A stretch of 30,311 bases of DNA, from the IMG/VR virus record IMGVR_UViG_2778261541_000010, positions 1 through 30,311 of that record; one strand, given 5' to 3'. Both the position numbers and the translations under genes were made by a program. Position 1 is the first letter of the stretch. The number at the start of each line of letters is the position of its first letter. Shown in pieces: positions 6,011 through 30,200 of this stretch. Below the pieces are notes generated by a model, which had not been told where the DNA came from, searched no databases, and worked only from the letters and a program-made list of their open reading frames with translations. The stretch comes from a virus (taxonomy: Duplodnaviria > Heunggongvirae > Uroviricota > Caudoviricetes).

Positions 6011-6025
6011 TTACCGTTGAGGTAA
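6011..6025. promoter_or_regulatory. Operator: perfect 15-bp palindrome TTACCGTTGAGGTAA overlapping the -10 of the leftward early promoter
   Basis: TTACC-N5-GGTAA; 62 bp centre-to-centre from the 6073 site. Confidence 0.7.
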
Positions 6026-6072: not shown

Positions 6073-6087
6073 TTACCCATCAGGTAA
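6073..6087. promoter_or_regulatory. Operator: TTACCCATCAGGTAA
   Basis: Perfect TTACC-N5-GGTAA palindrome between the repressor terminator and the leftward promoter. Confidence 0.7.
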
Positions 6088-6144: not shown

Positions 6145-6729
6145 TTATTGTTTGTTTTTTTCGTTCTGGCTGATGACAAATTCAATGTAACTTTCGATCT
6201 TTGCCTTCTCTGTTTCAGGTAACAATGCGTAGCGCGAGCGGTCATAGTTGATGGTCGCAGGGTCGTGCGGGTGAATCAGTAATTCATAGCCGTGACGCCC
6301 GAATGCGGATGCAACATTCTCCAGGGTGGAAATGGAAACACTGACCTCATTGTTTAACAGGCGGCTGATTGTCACCTGGGCGACGCCGGATGCGCGGTGA
6401 AGTTTTCCCTGCGTTGAAAGGTCGCGGCTTTCGCTCATCCAGCGTTCTAGGTTGTGAGCCGCCAGCTGACCAATGTCGCTTGGGCCGACAGGCTGAAAAC
6501 CTTCCTGAGAAAGCGAGCGATCGATATCAAGCCAGTTACGGGGTTTATTGGCGGCAGCTTCAATTTTTCGCGCAACCTGGTCGCCGATAACCTTCTTGCC
6601 AAGAGCCCAGCGGTTTACCAGATTTGCCTGAGTTCCAAGTTTTTCTGCCATCCGCGTCTGAACACCATTGAATTCACGGTCGATCAAGTCGTTGAGATTT
6701 TGCCTGCGGACGTCCTGGATACTTTTCAT
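6145..6729 (-). CDS. Phage repressor with two XRE-type HTH domains in tandem (CI-like function)
   Basis: Two HTH segments (MAEKLGTQANLVNRWALGKK and ASGVAQVTISRLLNNEVSVS); divergent from a cro-like gene across an operator-rich intergenic region; own terminator downstream. Confidence 0.8.
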   Translation of the reverse strand: MKSIQDVRRQNLNDLIDREFNGVQTRMAEKLGTQANLVNRWALGKKVIGDQVARKIEAAANKPRNWLDIDRSLSQEGFQPVGPSDIGQLAAHNLERWMSESRDLSTQGKLHRASGVAQVTISRLLNNEVSVSISTLENVASAFGRHGYELLIHPHDPATINYDRSRYALLPETEKAKIESYIEFVISQNEKNKQ

Positions 6730-6784: not shown

Positions 6785-6799
6785 TTACCCAATAGGTAA
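6785..6799. promoter_or_regulatory. Operator O1 of the immunity region: TTACCCAATAGGTAA
   Basis: Perfect palindrome between divergent repressor and cro genes. Confidence 0.7.
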
Positions 6800-6829: not shown

Positions 6830-6858
6830 TTGTTACCTTATGGGTGAATATTTATTAT
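6830..6858 (+). promoter_or_regulatory. Rightward early promoter driving cro (PR-like)
   Basis: TTGTTA-17 bp-TATTAT, about 25 nt upstream of the cro ATG. Confidence 0.5.
6833..6847. promoter_or_regulatory. Operator O3: TTACCTTATGGGTGA (one mismatch), overlapping the cro promoter
   Basis: Overlaps -35 TTGTTA (6830-6835) of a promoter with -10 TATTAT (6853-6858), 17-bp spacer. Confidence 0.55.
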
Positions 6859-6883: not shown

Positions 6884-7114
6884 ATGAGCGATAACGGACA
6901 TTTCGATTTCAAAAAGCACTGGCTTGCACTTACTCCGGATGAGCGTGAAGCCTTCGCACAGGAAGCCGGAACGACGAGTCACTATATCCAGACTCACTTA
7001 ACAGGTAAGCGCAAAATGCCAGGTAAGGTATTGATGAATGGGCTTTTTAAAGCCTGTAAAACAAGACAATGGCTGCGCTCAAAAGCAGAACTGGCATACT
7101 TCTTCTACTCATGA
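6884..7114 (+). CDS. Cro-like small HTH regulator
   Basis: 76-aa ORF divergent from the repressor; HTH-like LTPDEREAFAQEAGTTSHYIQTHLTGKR; promoter and operators immediately upstream; terminator downstream. Confidence 0.6.
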   Translation: MSDNGHFDFKKHWLALTPDEREAFAQEAGTTSHYIQTHLTGKRKMPGKVLMNGLFKACKTRQWLRSKAELAYFFYS

Positions 7115-7169: not shown

Positions 7170-7184
7170 GCACCTCAAAGGTAA
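7170..7184. promoter_or_regulatory. Degenerate operator-like site GCACCTCAAAGGTAA
   Basis: Same GCACC-N5-GGTAA variant as the 6802 site; lies between the cro terminator and the zinc-ribbon gene. Confidence 0.35.
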
Positions 7185-7480: not shown

Positions 7481-8278
7481 ATGAGCAGACATGCAACAGA
7501 TTGGGCCTGGGAGACAGATCCAGGGAGCTCGTCATTAAAGCTCATACTGCTCTCGATGGCTGACAGAGCCGATGAATATAACCTCTGCTACCCCAGCATA
7601 GAACGCCTCGTTAAAGACACTTGCCTGAATAAAAAAACCGTGCAGGCCGGACTTATATCGCTCATGAAAATGGGGCTTATTTCAGATACCGGAGAGAGAA
7701 AGGGAGCGACGAAAAGAGTGCGGGTTTTCTCTCTTAATATAACCAAAAACGGGAACATTAAAGGCAACCGGGAAGGGAGGAATGTTCCCGAAAACGGTAA
7801 TGTTCCCGAAAACGGGATGTTGAATGATCCCAAAAACGGGATGTTGAATGATCCCAAAAACGGGATCCAGAACCAGTCATATAACCAGTCATTTAACCAA
7901 GAGAGGGAGAGCAGGACAAAAACCGGGGATTCTGTGCCTCATGACCCCGGCGCAAACAACGCCGTGATGAATAACTTTGTTCCTCCTGGTGGGCCAGGGC
8001 AATTAGGCAAATTTGTCATGCATGAACAATGGCAACCATCAGATGACTTTCTTCGGAAAAGCTCATTGCAGGGGATCTACCTGGACAGTCTGCCAACGGC
8101 ACAGGAACTTGCAGAGTTCAGAATTTACTGGATGGCTGAGGGTAAGGCATACCATCAGGCACAGTGGGAGCAGAAGCTGGCAAGGCGGCTGCAGATTAGC
8201 AGACAGAAGCAATCAACATTACCTGATAACAACGTTCCGCACTGGAACAGCCCTGAAGCATGGGAGGATTTCTTGTGA
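7481..8278 (+). CDS. Replication initiator (lambda O-like) with iterons inside the coding sequence
   Basis: N-terminal HTH-like region, internal peptide repeats NVPENG/MLNDPKNG encoded by DNA iterons, C-terminal region typical of initiator/primosome proteins; GGAG RBS; followed by a P-like gene with GTGA overlap. Confidence 0.7.
   Translation: MSRHATDWAWETDPGSSSLKLILLSMADRADEYNLCYPSIERLVKDTCLNKKTVQAGLISLMKMGLISDTGERKGATKRVRVFSLNITKNGNIKGNREGRNVPENGNVPENGMLNDPKNGMLNDPKNGIQNQSYNQSFNQERESRTKTGDSVPHDPGANNAVMNNFVPPGGPGQLGKFVMHEQWQPSDDFLRKSSLQGIYLDSLPTAQELAEFRIYWMAEGKAYHQAQWEQKLARRLQISRQKQSTLPDNNVPHWNSPEAWEDFL
7741..7900. repeat. Iteron cluster (putative origin of replication) inside the O-like gene
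   Basis: Tandem 18-bp repeat AATGTTCCCGAAAACGG(T/G) x2 (7781-7816), tandem 24-bp repeat ATGTTGAATGATCCCAAAAACGGG x2 (7817-7864), shared core AAAACGGG in 5 copies including an inverted partial copy at 7746-7758, then AACCAGTCAT x2 (7871-7892). Confidence 0.7.
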
Positions 8279-9097: not shown

Positions 9098-9112
9098 TTA
9101 CCTGTTGGGTAA
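9098..9112. promoter_or_regulatory. Operator: TTACCTGTTGGGTAA
   Basis: Perfect palindrome upstream of the -35 of the 9.1-kb promoter. Confidence 0.7.
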
Positions 9113-9131: not shown

Positions 9132-9160
9132 TTGATTCCATGTCTTATGTGGTTTTTAAT
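9132..9160 (+). promoter_or_regulatory. Promoter for the accessory (nin-like) operon
   Basis: TTGATT (9132-9137)-17 bp-TTTAAT (9155-9160); flanked by operators at 9098 and 9160. Confidence 0.5.
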
Positions 9161-9174
9161 TACCTAAGGGGTAA
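9160..9174. promoter_or_regulatory. Operator: TTACCTAAGGGGTAA overlapping the -10/+1 region and the ribosome-binding site of the DUF1064 gene
   Basis: Perfect palindrome ending 4 nt before the ATG at 9178; 62 bp from the 9098 site. Confidence 0.7.
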
Positions 9175-9177
9175 ATC

Positions 9178-9522
9178 ATGAGAAAACAGATACAGGCTCT
9201 TGGTCGACTCAAAACAGGCCAAATGAACAAAACAGAATCTGCGTATTGCCAGCACCTTGAGCTGCGTAAACGTGCAGGAGAAATCGTCTGGTATCGATTT
9301 GAGGGTATCAAGCTGCGGTTAGCTGACAACACGTTCTATACGCCCGATTTTGCTGTGATGCTCGCCACCGGCGAGATGGAACTGCACGAAGTGAAAGGTT
9401 TCTGGACCGACGACGCCAGGGTGAAAACCAAAGTCGCCGCAGATCAGTATCCGTTCCGAATCATCGGGGTAACGGTTAAACCAAAGAAAGCAGGTGGTGG
9501 CTGGAACATCGAAGAGTTCTGA
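9178..9522 (+). CDS. DUF1064-like phage protein with a PD-(D/E)XK-like motif
   Basis: TPDFAV...ELHEVKG motif; first gene after an operator-flanked promoter. Confidence 0.5.
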   Translation: MRKQIQALGRLKTGQMNKTESAYCQHLELRKRAGEIVWYRFEGIKLRLADNTFYTPDFAVMLATGEMELHEVKGFWTDDARVKTKVAADQYPFRIIGVTVKPKKAGGGWNIEEF

Positions 9523-11492: not shown

Positions 11493-11823
11493 ATCAGCAG
11501 CAGAGCGCAAAGCCGCTCAGAGAGCCAGACAAGCTGCATCTGGTGTGCGTAAGCTGGAAATTGTGCTTGATGCTCAGGAAATTGAAATGCTGGAGCGTAA
11601 CTGTGCCACGCGTCGCCCCGGGCGTGCGCCTTACGAATTTGGTGAGTATATAGCGTTACTGATCCGCCAGGATGATGCACGCGTGCGCGGGCGTATAAAA
11701 TCGATCAGCAGAAAACGTTGCGGTAAGTGCGGCGAGAGAGTTCCAGTTAATTCATGCCCGTGTAATGGTGACTCGCAATGCTGGGTGACCAAAGGCTGGC
11801 ATGAAACGAAATTAATAGTGTGA
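11485..11823 (+). CDS. Putative ribbon-helix-helix DNA-binding protein with C-terminal Cys-rich zinc-ribbon motif; candidate late-gene regulator
   Basis: RKLEIVLDAQEIEMLERN (beta-strand then helix, RHH-like) and CGKCG...CPCNGDSQC; last regulator-like gene before the terminase block. Confidence 0.45.
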   Translation: MAKSAAERKAAQRARQAASGVRKLEIVLDAQEIEMLERNCATRRPGRAPYEFGEYIALLIRQDDARVRGRIKSISRKRCGKCGERVPVNSCPCNGDSQCWVTKGWHETKLIV

Positions 11824-11840
11824 CATGTCACGAAGGTGTT

Positions 11841-12127: not shown

Positions 12128-12724
12128 ATGATGCCTGCTGAACCTAAAACCTATAAACGCAAATCAACGCAATTTAAGCCACTAACAGCAATGCAGGAGG
12201 CTTATTGCCAGTCATACATCAAAACGCCTGAAAACCAGACTCAGGCAGCGATTAACGCAGGATTCTCCCCAAATACAGCGGCAGTTAAAGCCAGTGTCAT
12301 GATGCGCGATGAACGCATTCAAAAACGGATTGCCGAGCTGATGGAGGAGCGCAACAAACGAATGCGCGTCAGTGCTGATTACGTTCTCATGCGTCTGGTG
12401 GAGATCGACCAGATGGACGTGATCGACATCCTCAACGACGATGGGAGCCTTAAGCCAATCCGCGAGTGGCCGAAAATTTGGCGCACTACGCTTAGTGGCT
12501 TTGATCTGTCATCGACCATCATGAACATGAACGAGGATTCGATAGAGACAATCCTCAAAAAAATTAAATGGCCTGATAAGGTGAAGAACCTCGAACTGAT
12601 TGGTAAGCACGTCGACGTCAACGCATTCAAAGAACGCCTGGATGTTAATGTGAATGTGACAATTGCTGATCGCATAGCGGCAGCCAGGAAGAGACTGAAA
12701 GAACGTCAGGATGGCAATCAGTGA
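12128..12724 (+). CDS. Terminase small subunit
   Basis: TAMQEAYCQSYIKTPENQTQAAINAGFSP matches the HTH of phage small terminases; start trimmed to ATG 12128 (track start 12050 runs through a terminator and repeats). Confidence 0.7.
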   Translation: MMPAEPKTYKRKSTQFKPLTAMQEAYCQSYIKTPENQTQAAINAGFSPNTAAVKASVMMRDERIQKRIAELMEERNKRMRVSADYVLMRLVEIDQMDVIDILNDDGSLKPIREWPKIWRTTLSGFDLSSTIMNMNEDSIETILKKIKWPDKVKNLELIGKHVDVNAFKERLDVNVNVTIADRIAAARKRLKERQDGNQ

Positions 12725-14196
12725 CAGATACAGCGTTATCTCCTGAAGAGCAGTTAATCGAGGATATTGCAGGGTTCACTCACGATCCGCTTGGCTATGC
12801 CCTCTATGCGTTCCCGTGGGGGGAAGAGGGGACTGAACTGGCACATGCTACCGGCCCACGTCAGTGGCAGGCCGATGCGTTCCGAGAGATACGTGATCAC
12901 CTGCAGAATCCCGAGACGCGCTATCAGCCGCTTATGCTGGCACGTGCTTCGGGTCACGGTATTGGTAAATCAGCACTCATCTCAATGTTGATCAACTGGG
13001 GCATGTCCACTTGCGAGGATTGTAAGGTCGTGGTGACCGCCAACACCGACAACCAGCTACGAACGAAGACCTGGCCGGAAATTATCAAGTGGTCAAACCT
13101 TGCTATCACGAAAGACTGGTTTACCTGTACCGCTACCGCGATGTACAGCAATGACCCTGGGCACGACAAGCGGTGGCGAGCTGACGCAATCCCATGGTCT
13201 GAGCACAACACTGAGGCATTCGCCGGACTACACAACGAGCGCAAACGCATCATCGTGGTATTCGATGAAGCGTCGAACATTGCCGATCTGGTGTGGGAGG
13301 TAACAGAGGGTGCGCTGACGGACGAAGACACCGAAATCATCTGGGTGGCGTTCGGAAACCCGACTCGTAATACCGGACGTTTCCGTGAATGTTTCCGCAA
13401 GTATAAACACCGCTGGAAAACTGCGCAGATTGACAGTCGGACGGTGGAAGGTACCAACAAACAGCAGTTGCAGAAATGGGTTGATGACTACGGGGAAGAC
13501 AGCGACTTCGTTAAAATCCGTGTGCGTGGCATATTCCCTGATGCATCTGAATTGCAGTTTATCCCTACCGGTCTTACTGACGAGGCAATGAAACGGGTGG
13601 TAACCGCTGCGCAGGTTGCACATGCTCCGGTGATAATCGGCGTTGACCCGGCATACTCCGGTGTTGATGACGCTGTGATATACCTGCGGCAGGGGCTACA
13701 CAGTAAGGTGCTGTGGACTGGCAACAAGACTACCGACGATCTGATTATGGCGAAGCGTATCGCTGACTTTGAAGACCAGTATCAGGCTGACGCGGTGTTC
13801 ATCGACTTCGGTTACGGAACCGGTTTGAAGTCAATCGGTGACGGCTGGGGTCGTACATGGCAACTTGTTCCGTTCGGTGGCGCGTCTACTGACCCGCAGA
13901 TGCTCAACAAGCGTGGGGAGATGTTCAACTCATGCAAGACATGGCTGAGGCTCGGCGGCATGCTGGATGACCAAGAAACAGCGGACGACCTGTCGACGGC
14001 AGAGTACAAAGTTCGCGTGGACGGTAAAATCGTTATCGAACCGAAGGAAGATATCAAGGAGCGACTTGGGCGTTCGCCGGGGAAAGGCGATGCGCTATTG
14101 CTGACGTTTGCTTTCCCGGTCTCGAAACGCATAAATATACCAGGACAGCAAAGCCAGCAGGGAAGGGCCATAACGGATTATGACCCTTATGCTTAA
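12721..14196 (+). CDS. Terminase large subunit (ATPase/nuclease)
   Basis: Walker A-like ASGHGIGKS, Walker B-like IIVVFDEAS, C-terminal nuclease-like region; overlaps small-subunit stop. Confidence 0.85.
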   Translation: MTDTALSPEEQLIEDIAGFTHDPLGYALYAFPWGEEGTELAHATGPRQWQADAFREIRDHLQNPETRYQPLMLARASGHGIGKSALISMLINWGMSTCEDCKVVVTANTDNQLRTKTWPEIIKWSNLAITKDWFTCTATAMYSNDPGHDKRWRADAIPWSEHNTEAFAGLHNERKRIIVVFDEASNIADLVWEVTEGALTDEDTEIIWVAFGNPTRNTGRFRECFRKYKHRWKTAQIDSRTVEGTNKQQLQKWVDDYGEDSDFVKIRVRGIFPDASELQFIPTGLTDEAMKRVVTAAQVAHAPVIIGVDPAYSGVDDAVIYLRQGLHSKVLWTGNKTTDDLIMAKRIADFEDQYQADAVFIDFGYGTGLKSIGDGWGRTWQLVPFGGASTDPQMLNKRGEMFNSCKTWLRLGGMLDDQETADDLSTAEYKVRVDGKIVIEPKEDIKERLGRSPGKGDALLLTFAFPVSKRINIPGQQSQQGRAITDYDPYA

Positions 14197-14237
14197 TCCG
14201 CTGGTGGGGATAATACTGCTGATATCCTCTGGTGAGG

Positions 14238-14266
14238 ATAAAACAAAGCCAGCTCATCGGCTGGCT
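14238..14266. terminator. Terminator between convergent terminase large subunit and the moron gene (strong on minus strand, weak on plus)
   Basis: AGCCAGC-TCATCG-GCTGGCT; minus-strand reading is followed by TTGTTTTAT, plus-strand by GTTTGT. Confidence 0.6.
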
Positions 14267-14286
14267 GTTTGTGACATGTCACGGTG

Positions 14287-14667
14287 TTATTGCTCGCTTA
14301 ACTTCTGCTTCAGCAAGTAACCTTCGAGCATCCAGATTTTGTTTACAGCATTCTGCCGGGCAATCTTCCGACCAATTTCTGCATCAAAATTTTCCGGGCT
14401 TGCACAGGCACTCTCTCCGGTGACGGTGAAGCCATTCTTCAGCACCAGTACGCAGAAAGTGAGCAACTTCAATGGTGATAAATCACGATCGCCTTCTTCT
14501 GGTTTTTCTCTGCCACAATATTCGTTGCTGGAAATGGCACCATTTCGTCCATCATAAGCAGTAAAGTAATGCTCGCTTTTAATCACATCTTCGATGTGCT
14601 GCGGGGTGATTCGCGGTGCCGTTTTGCCTTTCTCAACGATTTCTTTTTCGATTTGCTGGTCGTTCAT
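14287..14667 (-). CDS. Reverse-oriented moron gene, likely DUF1398 (YbcV/YdfO-like) family
   Basis: 126-aa ORF on the opposite strand to all flanking structural genes; AAGGTGAG RBS; intrinsic terminators on both sides; family assignment from memory of YbcV/YdfO-like prophage proteins. Confidence 0.5.
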   Translation of the reverse strand: MNDQQIEKEIVEKGKTAPRITPQHIEDVIKSEHYFTAYDGRNGAISSNEYCGREKPEEGDRDLSPLKLLTFCVLVLKNGFTVTGESACASPENFDAEIGRKIARQNAVNKIWMLEGYLLKQKLSEQ

Positions 14668-14678
14668 AATCTCACCTT

Positions 14679-14702
14679 AAAAAAATGCCCGGTTCGCCGG
14701 GC
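14679..14702 (-). terminator. Intrinsic terminator directly upstream of the moron gene RBS (minus strand)
   Basis: Minus-strand GCCCGG-CGAA-CCGGGC followed by ATTTTTTT, then AAGGTGAG and the ATG. Confidence 0.65.
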
Positions 14703-14780
14703 GAACTGGAAGCAATGAGTTATGCCTTCCGTGGCTGTACTGGTTTACAGCATGAAGTCATCGCAATGGCGTCCTGCTGT

Positions 14781-14822
14781 AAAAAGGGCGGTGATAGTCC
14801 TTCAAGGGAAACCATCACCGCC
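14781..14822 (-). terminator. Terminator downstream of tRNA-Arg (minus strand)
   Basis: 9-bp stem GGCGGTGAT/ATCACCGCC with structured loop, followed on the minus strand by CTTTTTAC. Confidence 0.55.
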
Positions 14823-14865
14823 AAGCACCTGGAACTTCTGGCATCACGGTCCTTAGGCGTGATTC

Positions 14866-14942
14866 TGGCGTGGCATGCAGGATTCGAACCTGCGACCAAC
14901 CGCTTAGAAGGCGGTTGCTCTGTCCGACTGAGCTAATGCCAC
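14866..14942 (-). tRNA. tRNA-Arg (anticodon UCU), phage-encoded, with encoded CCA
   Basis: Reverse complement folds as a 77-nt cloverleaf: acceptor GTGGCAT/ATGCCAC, D-arm GCTC-AGTCGGACA-GAGC, anticodon arm ACCGC-CTTCTAA-GCGGT (anticodon TCT), T-arm GCAGG-TTCGAAT-CCTGC, discriminator G, CCA. Confidence 0.9.
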
Positions 14943-15264
14943 AACGCTGAGAGCACTTAGCCTGTTAAGGCGCCACACTTTGTCGCGGCTCCATAAATGC
15001 TCTCATCGTTGTACCCTCGCCTCTTCCGAGGCGTCACACCGAATCGCCGGGATGGTGAATCCCCGTGCGCGGAATAAAACCGCTCGACTTGCACATTCCG
15101 GCTACCTGGTTCGTTTGCCCGAGCAAGGGAGGGTGCCCCTTAAACGTATCCAGACCGCTATCGGCGCATGTGCCATACGCCGTACTGCTCAAAATAAAAG
15201 CTCACTCCACCTGTTCAATTTAACGACAAGCCAGTCAGGTTAGTAACCGGAATGAACCCTTTAC

Positions 15265-15279
15265 TTACCTGAAAGGTAA
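15265..15279. promoter_or_regulatory. Operator: TTACCTGAAAGGTAA upstream of the virion-gene operon
   Basis: Perfect palindrome about 90 bp upstream of the first structural gene. Confidence 0.65.
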
Positions 15280-15369
15280 TAATTCGTGCGTTAAATGTCA
15301 ACTATCTACGATAAATAAATCATATATGGTTAAATTGGTGATAATTTAATTGCGTACGGAGTCATTGAT

Positions 15370-15576
15370 ATGTGCATGGGTAGCTCACCATCAGTGCCTG
15401 CAACACCAGAAGTTCAGGCAGCACCACAGGAGCAGGATGCCGCCGTTGTTGATGCCCGCGACGAAGAAACACGTCGCCGTCGCGCTGCTGCTGGTCGTAG
15501 TTCTACGCTGCTTACCGGTTCTCAGGGCGACACATCAACCGCTAATACCAGCGGTAAAACGCTGCTTGGTCAGTAA
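15370..15576 (+). CDS. Small virion-associated protein (T7 gp6.7-like, tentative)
   Basis: 68-aa ORF starting MC..., Ala/Gly/Ser/Thr-rich, ACGGAG RBS, directly upstream of the portal gene; the overlapping 79-aa frame is rejected. Confidence 0.45.
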   Translation: MCMGSSPSVPATPEVQAAPQEQDAAVVDARDEETRRRRAAAGRSSTLLTGSQGDTSTANTSGKTLLGQ

Positions 15577-15590
15577 CCGGAGTCATTGAA

Positions 15591-17270
15591 ATGGCGGAAA
15601 CAACTAAAGAGCGATTGAACAAACAGTTCGCACAACTTGAAAGCGAGCGTCAGTCGTTCGAGCCGCACTGGCGCGAGTTGAGTGATTACATCAACCCGCG
15701 TGGTTCCCGCTTTCTGACTTCTGAGGTCAACCGTAACGATCGACGCAATACACGCATTATTGATTCTACCGGGACTATGGCGGCGCGCACTCTCGCCAGC
15801 GGCATGATGTCAGGCATCACAAGCCCCGCGCGTCCGTGGTTTCGCCTGGCTACGCCAGATCCTGAAATGATGGATTATGGCCCTGTTAAGTTGTGGCTTG
15901 AGGCGGTGCAGAACCGCATGAACGATATGTTCAATAAGTCGAATCTCTATCAGTCACTGCCGCAGTTATACGGAAGCCTAGGCACATACAGCACTGGTGC
16001 AATGGCAGTGCTGGAGGATGATGAGGACATCATTCGCACAATGCCATTCCCGATAGGCAGTTACTACCTGGCTAACTCACCTCGTGGCAGTGTGGACACC
16101 TGTTTTCGCAAGTTCTCTATGACTGTTCGTCAGCTTGTTCAGGAGTTCGGACTAAATAACGTCAGCGAATCCGTAAAAAGCATGTGGGAAAGCGGCACCT
16201 ACGAGAAGTGGATTGAAGTGATGCATTCGGTTTACCCGAACATTGACCGCGATACATCGAAGCTGGATAGCAAGAACAAGCCATTCAAATCGGTTTATTA
16301 CGAGGTTGGTGGCGATAACGACAAGTTGTTGCGTGAGTCCGGATTTGATGAGTTTCCAATTATGGCTCCGCGCTGGGAAGTTAATGGCGAAGATGTTTAT
16401 GGATCATCATGCCCGGGTATGCTGGCGCTTGGACCTGTTAAGGCATTGCAACTTCTCCAGAAGCGCAAGTCGCAGTTGATTGATAAAGCCACCAATCCGC
16501 CGATGGTTGCTCCGACTTCCCTCAAGAATCAGCGCGCCTCCCTTCTTCCTGGCGACATCACGTATATCGATCAGATTACTGGTCAGGATGGCTTCAGGCC
16601 TGCTTATCTGGTTAACCCCAGTACAGCAGATCTGGTAGCAGACATTCAGGACACTCGTCAAATCATTAACAGCGCCTACTTTGTCGATCTGTTCATGATG
16701 TTGCAGAACATCAATACCCGCTCGATGCCTGTTGAAGCAGTGATCGAAATGAAAGAAGAAAAACTTCTGATGTTGGGGCCGGTTCTGGAGCGTCTGAACG
16801 ACGAATGTCTTAATCCTCTCATTGACCGCGCTTTCTCGATGATGGTGCGTAAAAACATGCTGCCGCCACCGCCTGACGCGATGGAAGGTATGCCCCTGAA
16901 GGTCGAATACATTTCCGTCATGGCTCAGGCGCAGAAGTCTATCGGCCTGTCCAGTCTGGCGTCTACGGTCAACTTCATTGGTCAACTTGCGCAAGCGAAA
17001 CCAGAAGCTCTCGACAAACTCAACGTTGATCAGGCGATCGATGCATTCGCTGATATGTCCGGAGTGTCTCCAACCGTCATTGTTCCGCAGGAACAGGTTG
17101 AGCAGGCTCGCCAGCAACGGGCACAGCAACAACAGCAGCAACAAATGATGGCGATGGGGATGGCGGCGGCACAGGGGGCCAAGACGCTAAGCGAAGCTAA
17201 AACTTCGGATCCGAGTGTGTTGTCAGCTATGGCGAATGCAGTTAGTGGTCAGGGTGGGCAATCACAATGA
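15591..17270 (+). CDS. Portal protein, T7 gp8-like
   Basis: 559 aa; Q-rich C-terminus (QQRAQQQQQQQMMAMGMAAAQGA) parallels the T7 gp8 C-terminus; position before scaffold and capsid. Confidence 0.75.
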   Translation: MAETTKERLNKQFAQLESERQSFEPHWRELSDYINPRGSRFLTSEVNRNDRRNTRIIDSTGTMAARTLASGMMSGITSPARPWFRLATPDPEMMDYGPVKLWLEAVQNRMNDMFNKSNLYQSLPQLYGSLGTYSTGAMAVLEDDEDIIRTMPFPIGSYYLANSPRGSVDTCFRKFSMTVRQLVQEFGLNNVSESVKSMWESGTYEKWIEVMHSVYPNIDRDTSKLDSKNKPFKSVYYEVGGDNDKLLRESGFDEFPIMAPRWEVNGEDVYGSSCPGMLALGPVKALQLLQKRKSQLIDKATNPPMVAPTSLKNQRASLLPGDITYIDQITGQDGFRPAYLVNPSTADLVADIQDTRQIINSAYFVDLFMMLQNINTRSMPVEAVIEMKEEKLLMLGPVLERLNDECLNPLIDRAFSMMVRKNMLPPPPDAMEGMPLKVEYISVMAQAQKSIGLSSLASTVNFIGQLAQAKPEALDKLNVDQAIDAFADMSGVSPTVIVPQEQVEQARQQRAQQQQQQQMMAMGMAAAQGAKTLSEAKTSDPSVLSAMANAVSGQGGQSQ

Positions 17271-24005: not shown

Positions 24006-24580
24006 TGTGCGATCCGGTTATTGCTGGTGGCGCAATGCTCGCCATGAGTGGCATTCAGGCATACACCCAGTACCAACAGGGAAAGTATGCCTCGAAGGTT
24101 GCAGAAGCGAACGCAGATATAGCCACTGCTCAGGCAAATGATGCAATAAACAGAGGTAACGCTGAAGCTGAGCAACGGCGCAGAGAGACCCGACAGCGGC
24201 TTGGTACACAAGCGGCGACAATGGGGGCGACCGGCGCCGATTTATCTACCGGTAACGCGCTGGATATATTTGGCGACACTGCCCAGTTTGGCGCTCTTGA
24301 TGCGTTAACGACAGTGAATAACGCTCAGCGTGAGGCATATGGGTATCAGGTTCAGGGAATGAATGCTCGGGCACAGGGGGCTGCTGCTCAGTCGGCTGCT
24401 AAATCATCGATGACCAGCACTTTGTTAACGGCACCACTAAAAGCATACGGTGCGTACCAGATGTTTGGTGGGACGTGGAGTCCGTTCTCTAAAGGAAGTA
24501 CATCTAGTGGTGGGACGCCAATGTTATCTAACTCAGGTTTTATGAATTCTGACTCCCGATTCAAAATAGGAGGTTACTGA
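24005..24580 (+). CDS. Internal virion protein B (T7 gp14-like)
   Basis: 191 aa, begins MC..., Ala/Gln/Gly-rich, size and position like T7 gp14. Confidence 0.5.
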   Translation: MCDPVIAGGAMLAMSGIQAYTQYQQGKYASKVAEANADIATAQANDAINRGNAEAEQRRRETRQRLGTQAATMGATGADLSTGNALDIFGDTAQFGALDALTTVNNAQREAYGYQVQGMNARAQGAAAQSAAKSSMTSTLLTAPLKAYGAYQMFGGTWSPFSKGSTSSGGTPMLSNSGFMNSDSRFKIGGY

Positions 24581-27297
24581 TGCCTGTTGTTCCTACTACA
24601 TCCGGACGCCAGGTGCAAAGTCGTGGTGTGCAAACCGGTGGTTTTCAGACCTTCGATGTTCCTCAAGCAGGTCAGGTGCTGGCGAATGTCGCAGATCAGT
24701 ATGCGGTGACATATGGTGAAGCCAGGCAGAAAGCGAATGTTGCATTGTCTCAGGATGCCATCCTTCAGCTTAATCAGCGCAGCAATGAACGTCTTTATAA
24801 CCCTCAAACCGGTTTTTATGCACAACAAGGCAAAAATGCGATTGGTAAGGGGCAAGAGTACATATCTGGATTTGATCAGGATGTGGAAGAAATAGCTGCT
24901 TCATTGACTGATGAAGCTGCAAGAAATATGTTTTTGCAACAAGCCAGAACACAGAAAATTCAGTTCAGTACTGGAGTTCTCAGACATGAGATAGGGCAGA
25001 CAAATGCCTATGAAGATGAGCAATATCAGGCAACGAGAAAATTATGGATACAAAATGAAGCGGATGCCTGGAATGACCCGCAAACTGCCACTTTAGCCAG
25101 AAATTCCAGAATGGTAGCCATTGCCAGATATGGAGCTGCCAGGGGATGGTCACAAGAACGCATTCTGGAAGAAATAGAAAGTGATGATCGCAGTGCCACA
25201 GAAATGCGGGCGAAGAATTATGCCGCTGCCAATCCAGAAGGATGGCTAAATGGTCTGTTTCAGAAAAATGATTCTGGAGGCATGGACATGCGTGCCATAC
25301 GCCTTGTTGAATCAGGTGATCGACATTTTAATCCTGATGGTAGTCTTCTTGAGGGACCGATAACATCTTCTGGAGAGAGAGCCCAGGGGAAATACCAGTT
25401 AATGCCGGGCACAGGAAAAGAACTGGCGGCCAAGCGTGGCGTTGAATACAACCCTACGGACGAACAACAGCATGAAATGCTCGCCAGTGACTATGTAAAT
25501 CAACTGTATGGTAAGTACGGTTCCGAAATATTGACCGGAGCAGCATATAACTGGGGGATGGGTAACGTGGATAAACTGATCGCCAAAGTCGGTGATCCAC
25601 GTAAAGGTGAAATATCAGAAGAAGAATTTATCCGAAATCTTCCATCAGAAACACAAGGGTGGCTTTCCCGATATAGAAAAAATAAAACTGGAATGGATCC
25701 GCTGACTATTTATCAAATAGATAACCTTGCTAATAGTCAGATAGAAAAGCAAAGGAAGTTAATATTAGAACAGCTTGAGCCAGCTATTAATAACACCATG
25801 GCCCAGCTATATAACGGTGAGGTTCCAGATTATATACCGGCTCAGGAGACCATCATCAGGGGGTATGGAAAAAACGCAGATAAAATAATCAATCAACTGG
25901 ATATAGCGATTGATAACGCGAGAATATTCCAGGCAATTCAGTATTTGCCTCCTTCTCAGCAGCAAGAAGAAATGCAGAAAGTGAAGCCTGAGGTTAACGA
26001 TCCTCACTATGCGTTAAAACTCGATGCTTACGGAAAATTGTCTGCATTGCTTCAGAGATCAAATGAAGCAATTCAGGCGCAACGGGATTCACGCAGATTC
26101 AATGAGGCGCTGACAATAGGTGAAAAATTAGACCCAAGCAACAAGTCAATGCAGAAAGCTGCTGATTACACAGAAATGGCGCAGAACTTTCGTATTAATG
26201 ATGCCTCCACTCATGATGGGGTTGTTCGGCTTGTGGCTCAGACTGGCATAATGCCTTCGCAGGTCATCACGCAGCTTTCAGCAGTATCCCGATCCAGCAA
26301 TCAGGAAGTGGTTAAAAATGCGGCGGAACTGTTTAGTCGGTTATATGAAACAGACAATGCATCTATTGGAAATATGCCGAAGGATATGCAGGGTTTTTAT
26401 CTGACTGTTAAGCAACTAACTGATTCTGGCATGTCTGCTGATGCGGCTATCGAGCAGGCGCAGAACCTTACGTACAACCAGACCGATGCTCTTAAAGCTC
26501 AATTGGCATCAACGCAGAGTTCAAAAGAGTACAAAAATGATCGCAGCAAGGCGATGAATTCTGCTGTCAGCAATATGGCGCAGTGGTTCCGTTGGGATCC
26601 GTCTGCGGATGACCAGACGCCGGAAGCAGCTAGATTCCGTAATGACTATCAGACGCTGTATGACATTAACTACCGCGTTGCTGGTGGTAACGCTGACGTA
26701 GCGAAGCAAATGACCAACCAGCAGATAGCCCGCACCTGGAGTATCAGCGAGGTTAACGGAGAAGCGCAGTTTATGAAATATGCACCGGAGGCGCTTTATC
26801 AATATGGGCCGTCAGGCTGGCAGGCGGCGCAGTGGAAAGCTGAAAAAGAACGGCTGATGTACGGTGAGCGCAAAGAGATTATAACAACCAGCCCGACGTT
26901 GCTTGGGATCACGTCAGGTAATGCTCCTGTAGTTGAGACAAAAACCCCTGAGAGTCGTATTAATGGAGAATTATTCATAACCCCTGACGTGTTAACACCC
27001 CGTAATGGTGATTACGCCATTATGGTAAGAACTAAGGATGAAAATGGCATCGATCGGGTCCAGCCGTTTTATAACAAACATGGGCGTCCTATGCGTTGGG
27101 AACCATCACTAGAAGATTGGGAACCCTATAAGAAAATGCAGCAGGAACGGGAGCAGTACGAGCAGGAAGAAATTATGCGTGGACAGGCTATACGAAACTT
27201 CAAAGACAAGCATCGCGCTCTGGATGAGCAGTATCAGCGCCTGCATAACGAACGTATGGACAAATTTAAAGATTACTTTTCGTGGGGATCTAAATAA
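24580..27297 (+). CDS. Internal virion/ejection protein with lytic transglycosylase (SLT) domain
   Basis: LVESGDRHF...AQGKYQLMPGTGKE...AAYNWGMGNV matches the catalytic ES / QLM / AYN-G motifs of soluble lytic transglycosylases; 905 aa in the gp15/gp16 position. Confidence 0.75.
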   Translation: MPVVPTTSGRQVQSRGVQTGGFQTFDVPQAGQVLANVADQYAVTYGEARQKANVALSQDAILQLNQRSNERLYNPQTGFYAQQGKNAIGKGQEYISGFDQDVEEIAASLTDEAARNMFLQQARTQKIQFSTGVLRHEIGQTNAYEDEQYQATRKLWIQNEADAWNDPQTATLARNSRMVAIARYGAARGWSQERILEEIESDDRSATEMRAKNYAAANPEGWLNGLFQKNDSGGMDMRAIRLVESGDRHFNPDGSLLEGPITSSGERAQGKYQLMPGTGKELAAKRGVEYNPTDEQQHEMLASDYVNQLYGKYGSEILTGAAYNWGMGNVDKLIAKVGDPRKGEISEEEFIRNLPSETQGWLSRYRKNKTGMDPLTIYQIDNLANSQIEKQRKLILEQLEPAINNTMAQLYNGEVPDYIPAQETIIRGYGKNADKIINQLDIAIDNARIFQAIQYLPPSQQQEEMQKVKPEVNDPHYALKLDAYGKLSALLQRSNEAIQAQRDSRRFNEALTIGEKLDPSNKSMQKAADYTEMAQNFRINDASTHDGVVRLVAQTGIMPSQVITQLSAVSRSSNQEVVKNAAELFSRLYETDNASIGNMPKDMQGFYLTVKQLTDSGMSADAAIEQAQNLTYNQTDALKAQLASTQSSKEYKNDRSKAMNSAVSNMAQWFRWDPSADDQTPEAARFRNDYQTLYDINYRVAGGNADVAKQMTNQQIARTWSISEVNGEAQFMKYAPEALYQYGPSGWQAAQWKAEKERLMYGERKEIITTSPTLLGITSGNAPVVETKTPESRINGELFITPDVLTPRNGDYAIMVRTKDENGIDRVQPFYNKHGRPMRWEPSLEDWEPYKKMQQEREQYEQEEIMRGQAIRNFKDKHRALDEQYQRLHNERMDKFKDYFSWGSK

Positions 27298-30200
27298 TGC
27301 CAGTTTATGCACAAGCTGAAGATCTTAATAACGGACTGATCCCGTCAGGTAACGTTTTGCCGGAACAAACTGGGTTTGATGTTGCCCTTCCGGAAGGGGC
27401 TAATCCTGAGCCATTGCCACCTGAGCCTTCCGTATGGGGGGCTGCAATGCGACAGAACAATATTCTGTCTGGTTTTTTCCGCCCAGCCAGACAGTTTGAA
27501 CCGGTCGAGGGTTATAACCCATATGCTGATAAAAATGAGTTGCACGGTTATGAATACTGGGGGGCGAAATTTGCAGATTCCCGATCGCCAGAGGAAACGG
27601 CGTGGATTAAGCAGCAGATAGATGATGAAAATGAAGACAGACGTTTATTGTCTGATGCTGGCGTAGTTGGAACCCTTGCCAGTATTGCTGCGGGAATGGA
27701 TCCGGTTACTGTTGCGTCAATGTTTATTCCCGGTGCTCAAGGAGGGGCACTGGCGCGTATTGGCTCACAGATTGCGATTGGTGCTGCCGGTACAGCATTA
27801 AGCGAGGTTGTACTGAATAATCAGCAAATAACACGCTCATGGGGTGAAAGTGCCGCTCACGTTGCAGCGGGTGCGATGATGAGCGGCGTGTTTGCCAGTG
27901 CTGGTGTTGCGCTTTCGCCATCCGTCCGGGCTGCAGCCACACGTGAGGTTGCTGATGCTCTTGATAATATGAGCATTACATCAGCGACTGACAGGGCTGC
28001 CGCTTCGCTTTCCGATGGTGGTAGTGTTGGTGCTATGAAAATTGATACAGCGGCTCTGGATGATTTAACCCCTGTTTCCGGTGGGTGGGTTGGAAAGGCT
28101 GCATGGAAAGCAGGGAGCTATCTTACTCCTTTGACAAGGTTAATGGAGTCTCCGTCCAAGACGGTGCGAAAAACAGCGCTGGAGTTAGCCGAAAATAATT
28201 TCACCCTTAAAGGAAATGAAAGGGGGATTGAAACACCGGTAGCTGTAGAAACCCGTACACGTGGATGGCAGCGTGAAGAAGCTGCTGTTGTTGTCGGAAA
28301 TAAACAGGCATACGCAAAGTATAAAGCTGATGGTGGTGACATGAGTTTTGATTCATTTCGTCAGCAGGTTGGGAATGCTATGCGAAGCGGTGATGTGCAT
28401 GCTAATCCTGTTGTTCAGGAAACGGCGCAGGCGATGCGAACTGTATTAAATCGGGTGAAAGTTGAAATGCAAAAGCTTGGTTTATTGCCGCCAGATGAAG
28501 AACTGAAAGCATTAGGCCAGGCAAGCTATTTCCCACGCATATATAAAGTTGGAAAAATAATCAGTGAACGCGATAAATTTCGACGTATTTTGGTTGACTG
28601 GTGGTCGAGAGGAAATAAAACACTGGATCCTGAGGATGCTGAAATTGCAGCGGATATCGTAATTAATAAAATTACTGGTGCTAAGGTTCCACAGGATTTT
28701 GTCAGCGTATTTTCTGTAAAAGCCGCAGGTAGTACGAAAGAAAGAACATTAAATGTTCCTGATAGTCTTATCAGGGATTATCTTGAAAGTGATGTGAATT
28801 ACGTGCTGCAACGTCATATCCGTGAAGCGGCAGCAGAAATTGAGTTGACGAGAACATTTGGCAAACGAACTATGACTGAGCGTCTGCAATTAATTGAGGA
28901 CGAATATGACAGTCTGTTACGGGAAGTGCCTGAAAAAATAAAGGCGAAATATGACGAAAGTGTGGCAAATCTGAAAGCACGTTATGAGAGCAATGGTGAA
29001 GTTGTTCCTCAGGGTAAACTCGATTCATTAATGCGAAAGTACGAAAAGGAATTACGGAAAGAACAGTCCAGACTTTCAAAATCAAGAGCAAATGATCTCA
29101 GAGACATAACAGCATTACGCGATCGTCTTGTTGGTACATATGGTATGCCTGATGATCCGTCTTCGTTTTTTGTTCGTGCTGGCGCTTTTCTGCGGGATGT
29201 GAACTTCACGACCAAACTCGGTGGAATGACTGTATCAGCTATTCCAGATCTGGCCAGAGGGGTTATGGTTAATGGTTTCCGTAACACCATGAAAGGCTAT
29301 GCTTCTCAGATATCCCAATCACCGGCATTTAAGGCCAGCAAAGAAGAGATGTTGAAGATGGGGATTGGATTGGAAGCTGTACTACATTCACGTTCTCGTG
29401 CAATTGGTGATCTTGTTGACAGTTCTTCCAGGACAACAGCAGTCGAAGCAGGAATGGAGCGAATTACTGATGCCTTCGGCAAGCTGACACTCATGGATCG
29501 ATTTAATGACATAAACAAATCCATGAACGGAATGCTCACGTCAGACGGTATTTTGTCTGGTGCGTTTTCTGCACGTCGCATGGCAAAACTCGGTATCAAC
29601 GACAATATGGCTGCGCGTATTCGCAGTGAGTTCGAGAAACATGGTGAGGTAATTGATGGATGGCACATTGGTAACTTTGATAAATGGGACGATCAGTACG
29701 TTGCCGGAGTATTCCAGTCAGCGGTTCTGAAAGACGTTAATAACACTATCATCACCCCCGGTATTGGTGACACACCTTTATGGGCGAGTACTCCAATGGG
29801 GCGAACGATATTTCAGTTTAAATCATTCACAACGGCTTCATACAACCGTGCGCTACTTGGTGGGTTACAGGAAGGAACTGCGCAATTTTATTATGGCACT
29901 GTATTTCAGATTGCTCTTGGCTCACTGGTCTATGCGCTAAAAGAAGCATCGAAAGGGAAAAATGTTGACTGGTCACCAGAGAAGCTGGTGCTTGAGGGTA
30001 TAGATAGATCCGGTATTCTTGGGCCATTGATGGAATATAACAACATGGCTGAAAAGGCTACTGGTGGTGCTGTTGGGCTGGGGGCTTTATTTGGCACTGG
30101 CACACAGTCTAGGTATGCCAGTCGTGGATTCGTAGGATCTCTATTCGGACCGTCATTTGGTCTTGCGGATAGCATCATTGATGTGACCGCAGGAGTGTTG

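Follow-up and report, generated by a model that had tools for sequence, protein, structure and literature searches.

The window, that is, the whole 30,311-nt stretch of phage DNA that was analyzed, carries a series of minus-strand features between two plus-strand genes, encoding the terminase large subunit (12721-14196) and the portal protein (15591-17270). Read along the minus strand, these features are a promoter (P_left) whose −10 element overlaps a repressor operator, a structured RNA of about 240 nt, a tRNA-Arg(UCU) gene, a terminator (T1), a spacer, a second terminator (T2), a Shine-Dalgarno sequence, an exchangeable cargo gene and a third terminator (T3). An earlier note had singled out positions 14238-14942 of this region. 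Its observation that the tRNA and the small gene run opposite to their neighbors is confirmed by ARAGORN, by the open reading frame at 14287-14667(−) and by the orientation of the flanking genes, and the order it gave from the tRNA through T1, spacer, T2, ribosome-binding site and gene to T3 is upheld by a terminator scan and by reading of the sequence. With its start at TTGACA-17-TACCTT, the unit extends some 360 nt beyond the upstream end of that interval, which stops at the tRNA and so leaves out the promoter, the operator and the structured RNA. Two plus-strand open reading frames, 14685-14936(+) and 14980-15243(+), have no Pfam match.

A single tRNA was detected by ARAGORN over the whole window, a tRNA-Arg with anticodon tct (anticodon position 35) at 14866-14942(−). 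The Rfam tRNA model RF00005 likewise recognizes it with 73.3 bits, against a gathering score of 29, so that the complete tRNA-Arg(UCU) previously proposed passes both predictors, the kind of check suggested for it. Its CCA end is encoded at 14869-14867. Arginylation by E. coli ArgRS depends on the identity elements A20, C35, U36 and G/A73, and the minus-strand sequence has A20, C35, U36 and G73. Some 505 E. coli records contain copies with at least 95% identity, the closest host tRNA-Arg reaches only 84.5%, and a tRNA-Arg is annotated in related phages. The gene is optional within the genus, as it is missing in epsilon15 and in L128-type variants. A codon count gave 6.4 AGA and 5.0 AGG per 1000 codons in the window, both codons clustering in 7481-8278 and in the large genes of 24580-30311. 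Since AGA is about three times as common here as in E. coli, codon supplementation is plausible, as had been suggested earlier, and the tRNA would then assist in decoding a codon used more by the phage than by its host.

Scanning of positions 13800-15800 yielded six terminator sites, compared with 2.0 ± 1.3 in shuffled sequences, three of them on the minus strand at the places noted before. T1 (14778-14822, hairpin 14822-14787) has a 14-bp stem, an 8-nt loop and a CUUUUUA tail, with a ΔG of −22 kcal/mol. A sense-strand terminator at the T1 position, no more than 300 nt from P6, the last hairpin of the structured RNA, recurs in each of the 26 distinct loci that bear the tRNA. The 3′ half of T1 remains in epsilon15 as a deletion scar, and compensatory support for this hairpin is weaker in SPN9TCW. 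The spacer that follows (14703-14777) forms two small hairpins (CAGCAGG...CUGCUG and GGAAGGCA...UGCUUCC). T2 (14679-14702, hairpin 14702-14687) reads GCCCGG-CGAA-CCGGGC followed by A-U7, with a ΔG of −11.2 kcal/mol, and abuts the Shine-Dalgarno sequence AAGGUGAG (14671-14678), which lies 3 nt before the AUG at 14667. As the U-tract ends at 14679 and the Shine-Dalgarno sequence starts at 14678, the remark that T2 stops just short of the ribosome-binding site is accurate, the gap being 0-2 nt. T3 (14237-14266, minus-strand hairpin 14266-14247) is a bidirectional terminator with a 7-bp stem followed by UUGUUUUAU (ΔG −11.5 kcal/mol); it serves both the cargo gene and the terminase large-subunit gene that converges on it.

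In epsilon15 and SPN9TCW, T2 takes the form GCCCAC-UUCG-GUGGGC, a compensatory change, and T3 exists in three stem variants that are compensatory in the same two phages. Because both hairpins are kept by compensatory changes in epsilon15 and SPN9TCW, T2 and T3 are not chance hairpins. T2 is annotated as a terminator in epsilon15, and T3 as a plus-strand terminator in phiV10. Between the cargo stop codon and T3 lies a 12-nt perfect palindrome, GTGACATGTCAC (14271-14282), found twice in the window (the other copy at 11820-11831) where 0.08 copies are expected; it is kept in phiV10, epsilon15 and SPN9TCW despite differing cargo and T3 sequences.

The cargo gene (14287-14667, minus strand) starts with ATG and encodes a protein of 126 amino acids that matches Pfam family PF13876 (Phage_gp49_66) over all 82 positions of the profile (1-82), with an E value of 3.4e-35 and a score of 120.8 bits where the cutoff is 27. 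Its phiV10 and epsilon15 orthologues match the same family, which has been equated with the Acb4 (anti-CBASS 4) family (PMC11722364). Acb4 itself is a protein of Bacillus phage SPO1, with which the cargo gene shares this strong family membership, and eight of eight tested homologues bound cGAMP (PMC11722364). The direct match between the cargo protein and SPO1 Acb4 (PDB 9E4W) is weak, with an E value of 0.007 over 43 residues in the ENF-x-xEIGR region. In the alignment, the equivalents of the adenine-pocket residues F48, F62 and I66 are kept together with the ENF..EIGR motif (β3-α4), while the guanine-pocket residue E49 and the phosphate-contacting Y57 and T70 read T, A and I. The cargo protein also differs in length from the 96-residue SPO1 protein, having an N-terminal extension. 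Judged from family membership, the cargo gene likely encodes an Acb4-family anti-CBASS sponge.

Comparison with related phages shows that the parts flagged earlier are real and ordinary constituents of a leftward operon common to epsilon15/phiV10-like phages. The phiV10 locus has the same gene order at 96% nucleotide identity, with the cargo gene (PhiV10p03) and a terminator annotated; a further phiV10 coding sequence, p04, is antisense to the tRNA and probably spurious. O157 typing phages 9 and 10 have a tRNA-Arg annotated at the same locus, and the epsilon15 record carries terminator, RNase III, IHF and repressor sites there, the RNA core, the tRNA and half of T1 having been lost from epsilon15 by deletion. 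Among the records of these relatives, annotations already exist for the tRNA, the reverse gene, T2 or T3 and the repressor site, though scattered over different records, and no record joins the parts into one unit, names the function of the gene family or annotates a structured RNA. The notion of an insertion is not supported, as phiV10, typing phages 9 and 10, epsilon15 and SPN9TCW all share the complete module, and across Uetakevirus (phiV10, epsilon15, SPN1S) only the cargo gene is swapped.

The exchange is sharply delimited. Sf6 (gene 66), Huey, IME10 and the Klebsiella phage phiKp_30 share just the open reading frame, at 97-99% identity; SPN9TCW, Tyrion, EC.W1-9 and L128 carry a different cargo. 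The boundary of the swap falls exactly at the ATG, T2 and the Shine-Dalgarno sequence being kept together ahead of differing cargo genes. The mobility of the frame, its variation between close relatives, the antiparallel orientation of the unit and the terminator at its end would all suit the earlier proposal of an autonomous moron, expressed from the prophage and governed by an attenuator switch in the 14700-14790 leader. Against this stands the genus-wide conservation of slot, leader, T2 and Shine-Dalgarno sequence around an exchanged frame. Moreover, neither the promoter tool nor a laxer scan found a sigma-70-like promoter between the tRNA and the gene (14680-14865), and an anti-CBASS sponge is needed in lytic growth rather than in the lysogen (PMC11722364). 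Nor did folding of the leader reveal an antiterminator alternative: the minimum free energy and centroid structures keep T1, the two separate hairpins and T2, no structure sequestering the 5′ arm of T2 appears in these or in the ensemble, and the T2 stem pairs with a probability of 0.975-0.99 without a rival fold. Of the expected choice between readthrough and attenuation, dependence on readthrough therefore stands while attenuation finds no support, and we consider the autonomous moron highly improbable.

The sole good promoter upstream of the gene is P_left (15273-15301, minus strand), a predicted sigma-70 site with TTGACA at 15301-15296, a 17-nt spacer and TACCTT at 15278-15273. It is the top-scoring candidate on the minus strand of 14660-15340; a stricter scan missed it, its −10 element matching the consensus at only three of six positions. 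P_left is kept in epsilon15 and SPN9TCW and in 17 of the 23 distinct upstream variants among Uetakevirus-type IMG/VR loci. Its −10 element lies inside a perfect palindrome, TTACCTGAAAGGTAA (15265-15279), which is a candidate repressor operator: the window has 10 copies of the pattern TTACC-N5-GGTAA where 0.6 would be expected, the others clustering at a repressor-like open reading frame (6145-6729, minus strand) and a cro-like one (6884-7114, plus strand), and the same site bears the annotation 'repressor; lysogeny' in the epsilon15 GenBank record. Because the −10 element of P_left overlaps this operator, expression of the unit is probably early-lytic rather than lysogenic, which again disagrees with a prophage-expressed moron. 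The predicted operator could instead serve a rightward virion promoter. The paper on phage ZX5 gives no operator or transcript map.

Could the gene have a promoter that the scans do not see, located in the T1-T2 spacer and used by a phage activator or an alternative sigma factor, with T1 and T2 insulating the RNA and tRNA from the gene? The spacer, of about 85 nt, is some 80% conserved in epsilon15 and SPN9TCW, hence across Escherichia and Salmonella phages, which is more than a passive linker might need, and in some variants (L089-type) a second operator just past T2 hints at local regulation. However, a spacer promoter would still face T2, which lies between it and the Shine-Dalgarno sequence; only 0-2 nt separate the U-tract from the Shine-Dalgarno sequence, and the scan gave no −10/−35 candidate of any quality. 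This reading is very unlikely.

Between P_left and the tRNA lies a conserved structured RNA of about 240 nt (14943-15185, minus strand). It has six covariation-supported helices including a pseudoknot, arranged as a core of helices P1-P5 plus the pseudoknot (15185-15013) and a long hairpin, P6 (15011-14942), whose closing pair uses nucleotide G1 of the tRNA. A covariance model (R1) gives a single match in the window, with 146 bits and an E value of 4e-46. In alignment A3, 98.3% of the cells are paired and 17 of the 42 pairs show compensatory changes; none of 500 shuffles was as good, and slid controls reached 29-50% paired. A second alignment, A4, gave the same outcome, and the G-U pairs are compatible with the minus strand only. 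A protein-coding reading of the region was rejected, as it has no Pfam match and its substitutions are compensatory in helices rather than codon-periodic. No Rfam 15 family matches the RNA: a window scan at gathering thresholds returned the tRNA only, and a scan of 14200-15600 at E ≤ 10 returned nothing in 14943-15260. Searches of the literature on antitermination, phage P1 ban, phiV10 and epsilon15 yielded no description of it.

Helix P1 is a plain 9-bp hairpin. RNAalifold by default pairs the invariant strands GCACAU and AUGUGC; this long-range pairing was set aside in favor of the local hairpin, because pair 36:48 of the latter covaries between G-C and A-U (12:10). The two strands never vary, and their long-range pairing might be a pseudoknot or a switch. 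T-arm inserts resembling those of tRNAs were dismissed as a general feature of P6, occurring in only 4 of 82 variants.

The RNA is far from confined to this genus. It was found in 1840 of 5426 complete E. coli genomes, about a third, and in 87 phage records, and is annotated in none; among the E. coli prophages that carry it are Stx-converting, cdt-converting and P1-like ones. Wherever it occurs, it is part of a repressor-controlled early operon. In lambdoid phages that lack N it comes immediately after a strong PL-type promoter and the cI terminator, as in an Stx2c phage, mEp390, mEp460 and cdtI, where it follows the early promoter with no N gene nearby. Most lambdoid copies lie 45-55 nt behind PL, at the start of a long operon leader. 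Among 64 distinct copies without a tRNA, 50 show no terminator in the 300 nt that follow; in these the RNA leads a long operon and is not a self-contained terminated gene. In Uetakevirus-type copies, on the other hand, a terminator always separates the RNA from the cargo gene, also where the tRNA is missing, and an unrelated element repeats the layout of promoter, RNA, two terminators and genes.

Taken together, the best explanation is that epsilon15/phiV10-like podoviruses carry, as standard, a single leftward transcription unit here, and that the segment flagged earlier makes up its distal two thirds. For this explanation as a whole we put the probability slightly above one half (about 0.55). 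The prophage repressor would shut the unit off, and it would fire early after induction or infection. Its abundant products would be the structured RNA and the tRNA, ending at T1, and the cargo gene would be translated only from transcripts that pass both T1 and T2, its product then sequestering CBASS cyclic dinucleotides. How polymerase might pass the terminators is a matter of speculation: we propose, by analogy, that the upstream RNA acts in cis on the polymerase to permit readthrough of T1 and T2, as a functional analogue, not a detectable homologue, of HK022 put. It is also conceivable that T1, with its 14-bp stem and −22 kcal/mol, lets hardly any transcript past; the gene would then be nearly silent or depend on a promoter of an unrecognised type. 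A terminator-resistant polymerase would, moreover, also overrun T3 and run antisense to the terminase genes.

The main rival to an RNA that acts in cis is passive leakage: T1 and T2 would be imperfect, the RNA would be a stable trans-acting or protein-binding RNA freed by tRNA processing, with RNase P cutting its 3′ end here and tRNA 3′ processing freeing its 5′ end in phage P1, and a leak of a few percent would keep the sponge low. The placement of the tRNA fits, as it abuts the 3′ side of the RNA in Uetakeviruses and the 5′ side in P1-like phages, and here the closing pair of P6 overlaps tRNA nucleotide 1. In some copies a strong terminator comes no more than about 55 nt after the RNA, as it would in a stand-alone RNA gene; the ban operon of phage P1 embeds a dicF-like small RNA and a terminator upstream of tRNAs and genes; and, downstream of the RNA, terminators show no enrichment on the sense strand over the antisense strand, which, like the lack of detectable homology to put described below, also speaks against readthrough. 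So does the phage P1 copy, which lies 2.4 kb from its promoter and lacks P6. Leakage sits less well with the lambdoid copies, most of which lie close behind PL without a nearby terminator, a placement typical of cis-acting elements, or with T2, whose retention by compensatory change before the Shine-Dalgarno sequence whatever the cargo suggests a regulated gate. We regard leakage as a serious minority view, less probable than not.

Returning to the RNA acting in cis, the widest form of the proposal is that it founds a new and very common class of phage leader RNAs that modify host RNA polymerase in cis, by processive antitermination or protection from Rho, without a phage protein. Such RNAs would act at PL in N-less lambdoid prophages and before ban in P1-type plasmid prophages, and in Uetakeviruses would let polymerase traverse a tRNA and two terminators to reach an exchangeable anti-defense gene. 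We hold this generalization only tentatively and at odds clearly below even.

The flagged features alone add little, being already annotated piecemeal in relatives and with the gene family recently assigned to anti-CBASS sponges. Of more interest is that the locus looks like a ready-made expression slot, consisting of leader, T2 and Shine-Dalgarno sequence, that takes differing small genes. In this window it is occupied by an Acb4 homologue, and cargo genes without an assigned role in relatives, SPN9TCW and Tyrion among them, thus become candidates for new anti-defense functions. The unexpected part is the large, covariation-supported RNA without database annotation that heads the unit. If it controls elongation, this would explain early-left gene expression in N-less lambdoid prophages and would provide a second natural example of protein-free antitermination, structurally unrelated to put and widespread in Enterobacterales; to our knowledge, RNA-only antitermination has so far been described only for HK022-type put. 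Should it act otherwise, an abundant phage RNA would still await explanation, and standard E. coli systems make it easy to test.

Parallels for the separate parts can be found in several systems. Stx phages carry an argO-type tRNA-Arg(UCU) upstream of stx, 82-84% identical to the present one, and T4-like phages and cyanophages also encode a tRNA-Arg, 90% identical over about 70 nt in cyanophage S-RIM2; all have the same anticodon and the same rationale of rare AGA/AGG codons. What sets the present tRNA apart is that it is fused to a structured RNA, at the 3′ end of the latter, and that two terminators follow. The cargo gene resembles lambdoid morons, as defined by Hendrix and Juhala, in being an extra gene between conserved neighbors that is followed by a terminator and variable among relatives; it differs from them in having no recognizable promoter of its own, in occupying a conserved, pre-built expression slot and in being probably repressor-controlled. 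The unit as a whole has a parallel in the ban operon of phage P1. In this C1-controlled operon (dicF-like RNA, terminator, tRNAs, tci genes, trnI, ban), too, small RNAs and tRNAs stand among protein genes and an internal terminator behind a repressor-controlled promoter. It contains the same RNA core at 79.5% identity, directly after tRNA-Ile2(CAU) and before ban, so that the RNA there follows a tRNA instead of preceding it.

The comparison that matters most for the proposed mechanism is with the put RNAs. BLAST, an nhmmer profile and covariance model R1 at E ≤ 10 all gave no homology of the RNA to HK022 putL or putR or to HK639 putL, whose putL-like annotation was used as a comparison for RNA placement in N-less lambdoid phages; the only BLAST match was a chance 13-mer inside nun. 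Short motifs noticed post hoc are shared, namely CGGCG-N7/11-CAUGCG(U/C)CG (put stem I) and CGG(C)AAUG(C)UGC (the RNA polymerase-contacting strand). A put RNA has about 70 nt and two stems, with an essential 5′ duplex, A3-G7/C15-U19 (PMC9378689). It relieves termination in cis, an effect that is lost in rpoC mutants altered in the zinc-binding domain, for example Y75N. The put duplex has no counterpart in the present RNA, and the two stems and triplex of put contrast with six helices and a pseudoknot in about 240 nt. In position, on the other hand, the two agree: HK022 putL occupies the same place as the RNA does in N-less lambdoid relatives, directly downstream of a repressor-controlled PL with no N nearby, and in this window terminators lie between the RNA and the downstream genes.

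Positions 14100-15700 of the window match phage PH444 at 98.4% identity and Escherichia phage phiV10 at 96%; collinear with this region are O157 typing phages 9 and 10, TL-2011b, epsilon15 and SPN1S, all of the genus Uetakevirus. The leftward unit is flanked by the genes for the terminase large subunit (12721-14196, plus strand) and, beyond a 68-aa ORF (15370-15576), the portal (15591-17270, plus strand; Pfam Head-tail_con, E 1.6e-187). The earlier note had read the unit as a reverse-strand insertion carrying a moron gene. Its observations were confirmed: ARAGORN and Rfam (73.3 bits) agree on a complete tRNA-Arg(UCU) at 14866-14942 (minus strand), the only tRNA in 30 kb; ORF 14287-14667 (minus strand) encodes 126 aa as described; and a terminator scan, yielding six sites in 2 kb (2.0 ± 1.3 expected), recovered all three minus-strand terminators, T1 (14822..14787; -22 kcal/mol, very stable), T2 (14702..14687; canonical) and T3 (14266..14247). 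Its interpretation was partly supported. T2, the Shine-Dalgarno (SD) sequence and the stretch up to the ATG persist in SPN9TCW, Tyrion, EC.W1-9 and the IMG/VR variant L128, where other genes fill the same place; the locus is therefore a fixed slot for expressing exchangeable cargo rather than an inserted self-contained unit. Neither a tool scan nor a laxer scan revealed a sigma-70-like promoter between tRNA and gene, which also speaks against an autonomous moron and agrees with the proposed dependence on readthrough. The flagged tRNA, gene and terminators are of known kinds and already annotated piecemeal in relatives; added here are the assignment of the cargo gene to the Acb4 family of anti-CBASS sponges, the recognition of a repressor-controlled slot holding exchangeable, probably anti-defence, cargo, and a widespread, unannotated structured RNA heading the unit, whose function is directly testable.

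The cargo protein is a full-length member of PF13876 ('N4 Gp49 / Sf6 gene 66'; Pfam, E 3.4e-35), as are phiV10p03 and the epsilon15 orthologue; its PHROGs entry states only 'unknown function'. Among PDB sequences it weakly matches 9E4W, 'anti-CBASS 4 (Acb4)' of Bacillus phage SPO1 (E 0.007), across the ENF-x-xEIGR region. SPO1 Acb4 has been placed in PF13876, 1,331 Pfam members being treated as the Acb4 family, and all 8/8 purified homologues bound 3'3'-cGAMP (PMC11722364). In the alignment, the adenine-pocket residues F62 and I66 and the stacking F48 of SPO1 Acb4 are kept, whereas E49, Y57 and T70 are replaced, so that the ligand preference may differ. By itself the ORF, beginning 3 nt ahead of the ATG and finishing just short of the stop codon, recurs at 97-99% identity near lysis genes of Sf6, Huey, IME10 and a Klebsiella phage.

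The tRNA has a gene-encoded CCA and, read from the sequence, A20, C35, U36 and G73. The best host E. coli tRNA-Arg is only 84.5% identical to it and that of Stx phages 84%; marine cyanomyovirus tRNA-Arg, for example that of Synechococcus phage S-RIM2, is nearer (90% over ~70 nt). Per 1000 codons, the window ORFs contain 6.4 AGA and 5.0 AGG; E. coli uses roughly 2 and 1. These codons are concentrated at 24580-27297 (14 AGA), 27297-30311 (10 AGA) and 7481-8278 (6 AGA), and in the same count AGA is absent from the portal, scaffold and capsid genes and AGG from portal and capsid genes. Of the 62 AGA codons counted, 24 fall in the two largest virion genes (24580-30311; 905 and >1004 aa). An 83-aa ORF (14685-14936, plus strand) runs opposite T2, the spacer, T1 and the tRNA and corresponds to the annotated CDS PhiV10p04 of phiV10; it lacks a Pfam match and is almost certainly a spurious gene. 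Likewise, mEp390_036, mEp460_037 and cdtI orf40 lie across the structured RNA or across its leader.

The U-tract of T2 ends at 14679, directly before AAGGUGAG (14678-14671) and the AUG at 14667, as had been noticed. The attenuation control suggested on these grounds was not borne out: in leader folding T2 forms with probability 0.98 and no competing fold was found. Since the stems of T2 and T3 are preserved by compensatory substitutions in epsilon15 and SPN9TCW, both terminators are under selection. A perfect 12-nt palindrome, GTGACATGTCAC, occurs twice in the window (11820-11831 and 14271-14282; 0.08 expected), on either side of the paired genes for the small and large terminase subunits; the latter copy, between cargo stop codon and T3, is kept in phiV10, epsilon15 and SPN9TCW. 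It is possibly a protein binding site or recombination boundary.

The best minus-strand promoter candidate in 14660-15340, P_left (TTGACA 15301-15296, 17 nt, TACCTT 15278-15273), is conserved in epsilon15 and SPN9TCW and present in 17/23 distinct Uetakevirus-type upstream regions among the IMG/VR matches listed. Its -10 lies inside a perfect palindrome, TTACCTGAAAGGTAA (15265-15279), and the homologous site in the epsilon15 GenBank record is annotated as a repressor binding site. TTACC-N5-GGTAA is present in 10 copies in the window (0.6 expected), including 6011-6025, 6073-6087, 6785-6799, 6833-6847, 6994-7008 and 7170-7184. Two of these sites are downstream and four upstream of ORF 6145-6729 (minus strand), which resembles phage repressors; together they bracket this ORF and the cro-like ORF 6884-7114 (plus strand) in a layout like OL/OR of lambda. 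A further pair (9098-9112, 9160-9174) precedes ORF 9178-9522. We infer that the leftward unit would be repressed in the lysogen and fire on induction, a timing that suits an anti-CBASS protein. In the Uetakevirus variants L089 and L104 a second repressor operator, TTACCTTAAAGGTAA, lies ~10-40 nt past T2, replacing the SD and cargo arrangement of the window.

The ~330 nt from P_left to the tRNA hold no credible ORF. Sensitive BLAST revealed that 14939-15183 is 70-82% conserved in phages unrelated to Uetakevirus (Stx2c-converting, cdtI, mEp460, mEp390, 2H10, P1, P7, D6, Klebsiella and Stenotrophomonas phages), 87 records in all. An exact 19-mer taken from this stretch, GGTAGCCGGAATGTGCAAG, is found in at least 120 IMG/VR loci, where its invariance holds by construction as these were collected through it; BLAST-found copies also carry it, as do 24 species-representative genomes (Escherichia, Citrobacter, Klebsiella, Enterobacter, Kosakonia, Kluyvera, Buttiauxella, Erwinia and others). 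The element occurs in 1840/5426 complete E. coli genomes of RefSeq, at 2474 places (554 plasmid-borne), none of which is annotated, and lies without annotation between trnI and ban in the fully curated phage P1 record.

Covariation shows that 14943-15185 is a structured RNA of the minus strand, the only strand with which its G-U pairs are compatible. A six-helix structure pairs 98.3% of cells in an alignment of 23 diverse copies (A3), with compensatory changes at 17/42 pairs; 0/500 shuffles equalled it, and sliding the partners lowered pairing to 29-50%. It comprises hairpin P1 (CGGCR-UAUGGCA-CAUGYGYCG), P2, P4 with a pseudoknot between its loop CACC and downstream GGUG, P5 (CCUCG-GAAGAGA-CGAGG) and a long P6 with variable apex. 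A 38-sequence core alignment (A4) gave the same picture. Clean two-state covariation is seen in P1 (G-C/A-U 19:19), P2 (C-G/U-A 27:11), the pseudoknot (C-G/A-U 33:5), P5 (C-G/G-C 29:8) and P4. RNAalifold favoured joining the invariant P1 sequence GCACAU to AUGUGC within the 19-mer, a possible alternative pairing. With R1, a covariance model built on the core, the window shows a single copy (15013-15185, minus strand; 146 bits) and epsilon15 a 42-bit remnant. There (L002, 2207-2296) only P1 and the P2 5' strand remain of the RNA, joined by a deletion to the 3' half of T1; lost were the core, the whole tRNA and the other half of T1, and the spacer, T2 and the PF13876 gene were kept. epsilon15 is a natural mutant for asking whether the RNA matters to cargo expression. 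In 4/82 variants listed (L006 2800-2900, L017, L104, L108), hairpins like a T-arm, GTTCGATTCC or GTTCAATTCC, are present in the P6 apex; the L108 insert resembles a complete tRNA-like fold, on which ARAGORN makes no call. Such inserts, and tRNAs abutting either RNA end, suggest that the RNA has recombined with tRNA genes more than once or is functionally linked to them. The P6 3' strand reads UGCUCUC in the window (14951-14958) and UGCUCUUU in many variants; although base-paired, it would match the first part of the rrn/lambda boxA consensus.

All three contexts of the RNA are repressor-controlled early operons. In Uetakeviruses it follows P_left at 35-90 nt and continues directly into tRNA-Arg, whose nucleotide 1 takes part in the last pair of P6. 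In P1-like phages it lacks P6 and begins 14 nt past tRNA-Ile2(CAU), upstream of ban in the C1-controlled ban operon. In lambdoid prophages the cI stop and terminator are followed by a near-consensus promoter (e.g. TTGACA-16-CATAAT), ~45-55 nt, the RNA, a further leader of ~300 nt and the early-left genes, with no N-like gene annotated at the loci examined. This leader is G+C-rich and untranslated with several hairpins in L007 (2715-3000, minus strand), cdtI and mEp460, and may be a further structured element.

In the proposed scheme most transcripts would stop at T1, releasing RNA and tRNA, and the cargo gene would be reached by readthrough alone. We speculate that the RNA might render polymerase terminator-resistant. 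This would fit its place as a promoter-proximal leader, the invariable position of T2 between RNA and cargo in the Uetakevirus variants listed, tRNA-less ones included, and the lack of a terminator within 300 nt in 50/64 tRNA-less copies among those listed, in which the RNA is hence not a self-contained gene. It would also fit an unrelated temperate element (L101 8540-8800, L046), which repeats the layout of promoter, RNA, two terminators and genes. There, the first terminator is strong, at least five GGAAAGACC repeats, which look like iterons or protein binding sites, separate it from the second, and the genes include one for a 719-aa protein. The main rival is passive leak through the terminators, in which case the RNA would act in trans, following a processing step linked to the tRNA. 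Against terminator resistance stand the context in phage P1, the lack of statistical enrichment of terminators downstream of the RNA, and the expectation that a resistant polymerase would overrun T3 into antisense terminase.

The RNA was compared with put, the antiterminator RNA of HK022 and HK639. Neither BLAST, an nhmmer profile nor R1 matched HK022 putL/putR or HK639 putL, even at E<=10, and the architecture differs; the RNA is thus not assigned to the put family, and this lack of homology also counts against terminator resistance. The putL of HK022 and HK639 occupies the position held by the RNA in lambdoid prophages, and two motifs, noticed post hoc, are shared with put as described (PMC9378689): CGGCG-N7-CAUGCG(C/U)CG recalls stem I (CGGCG-N11-CAUGCGUCG), and CGGAAUGUGC resembles the RNAP-contacting strand CGGCAAUGCUGC. 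We hypothesize that the RNA may be a functional analogue of put.
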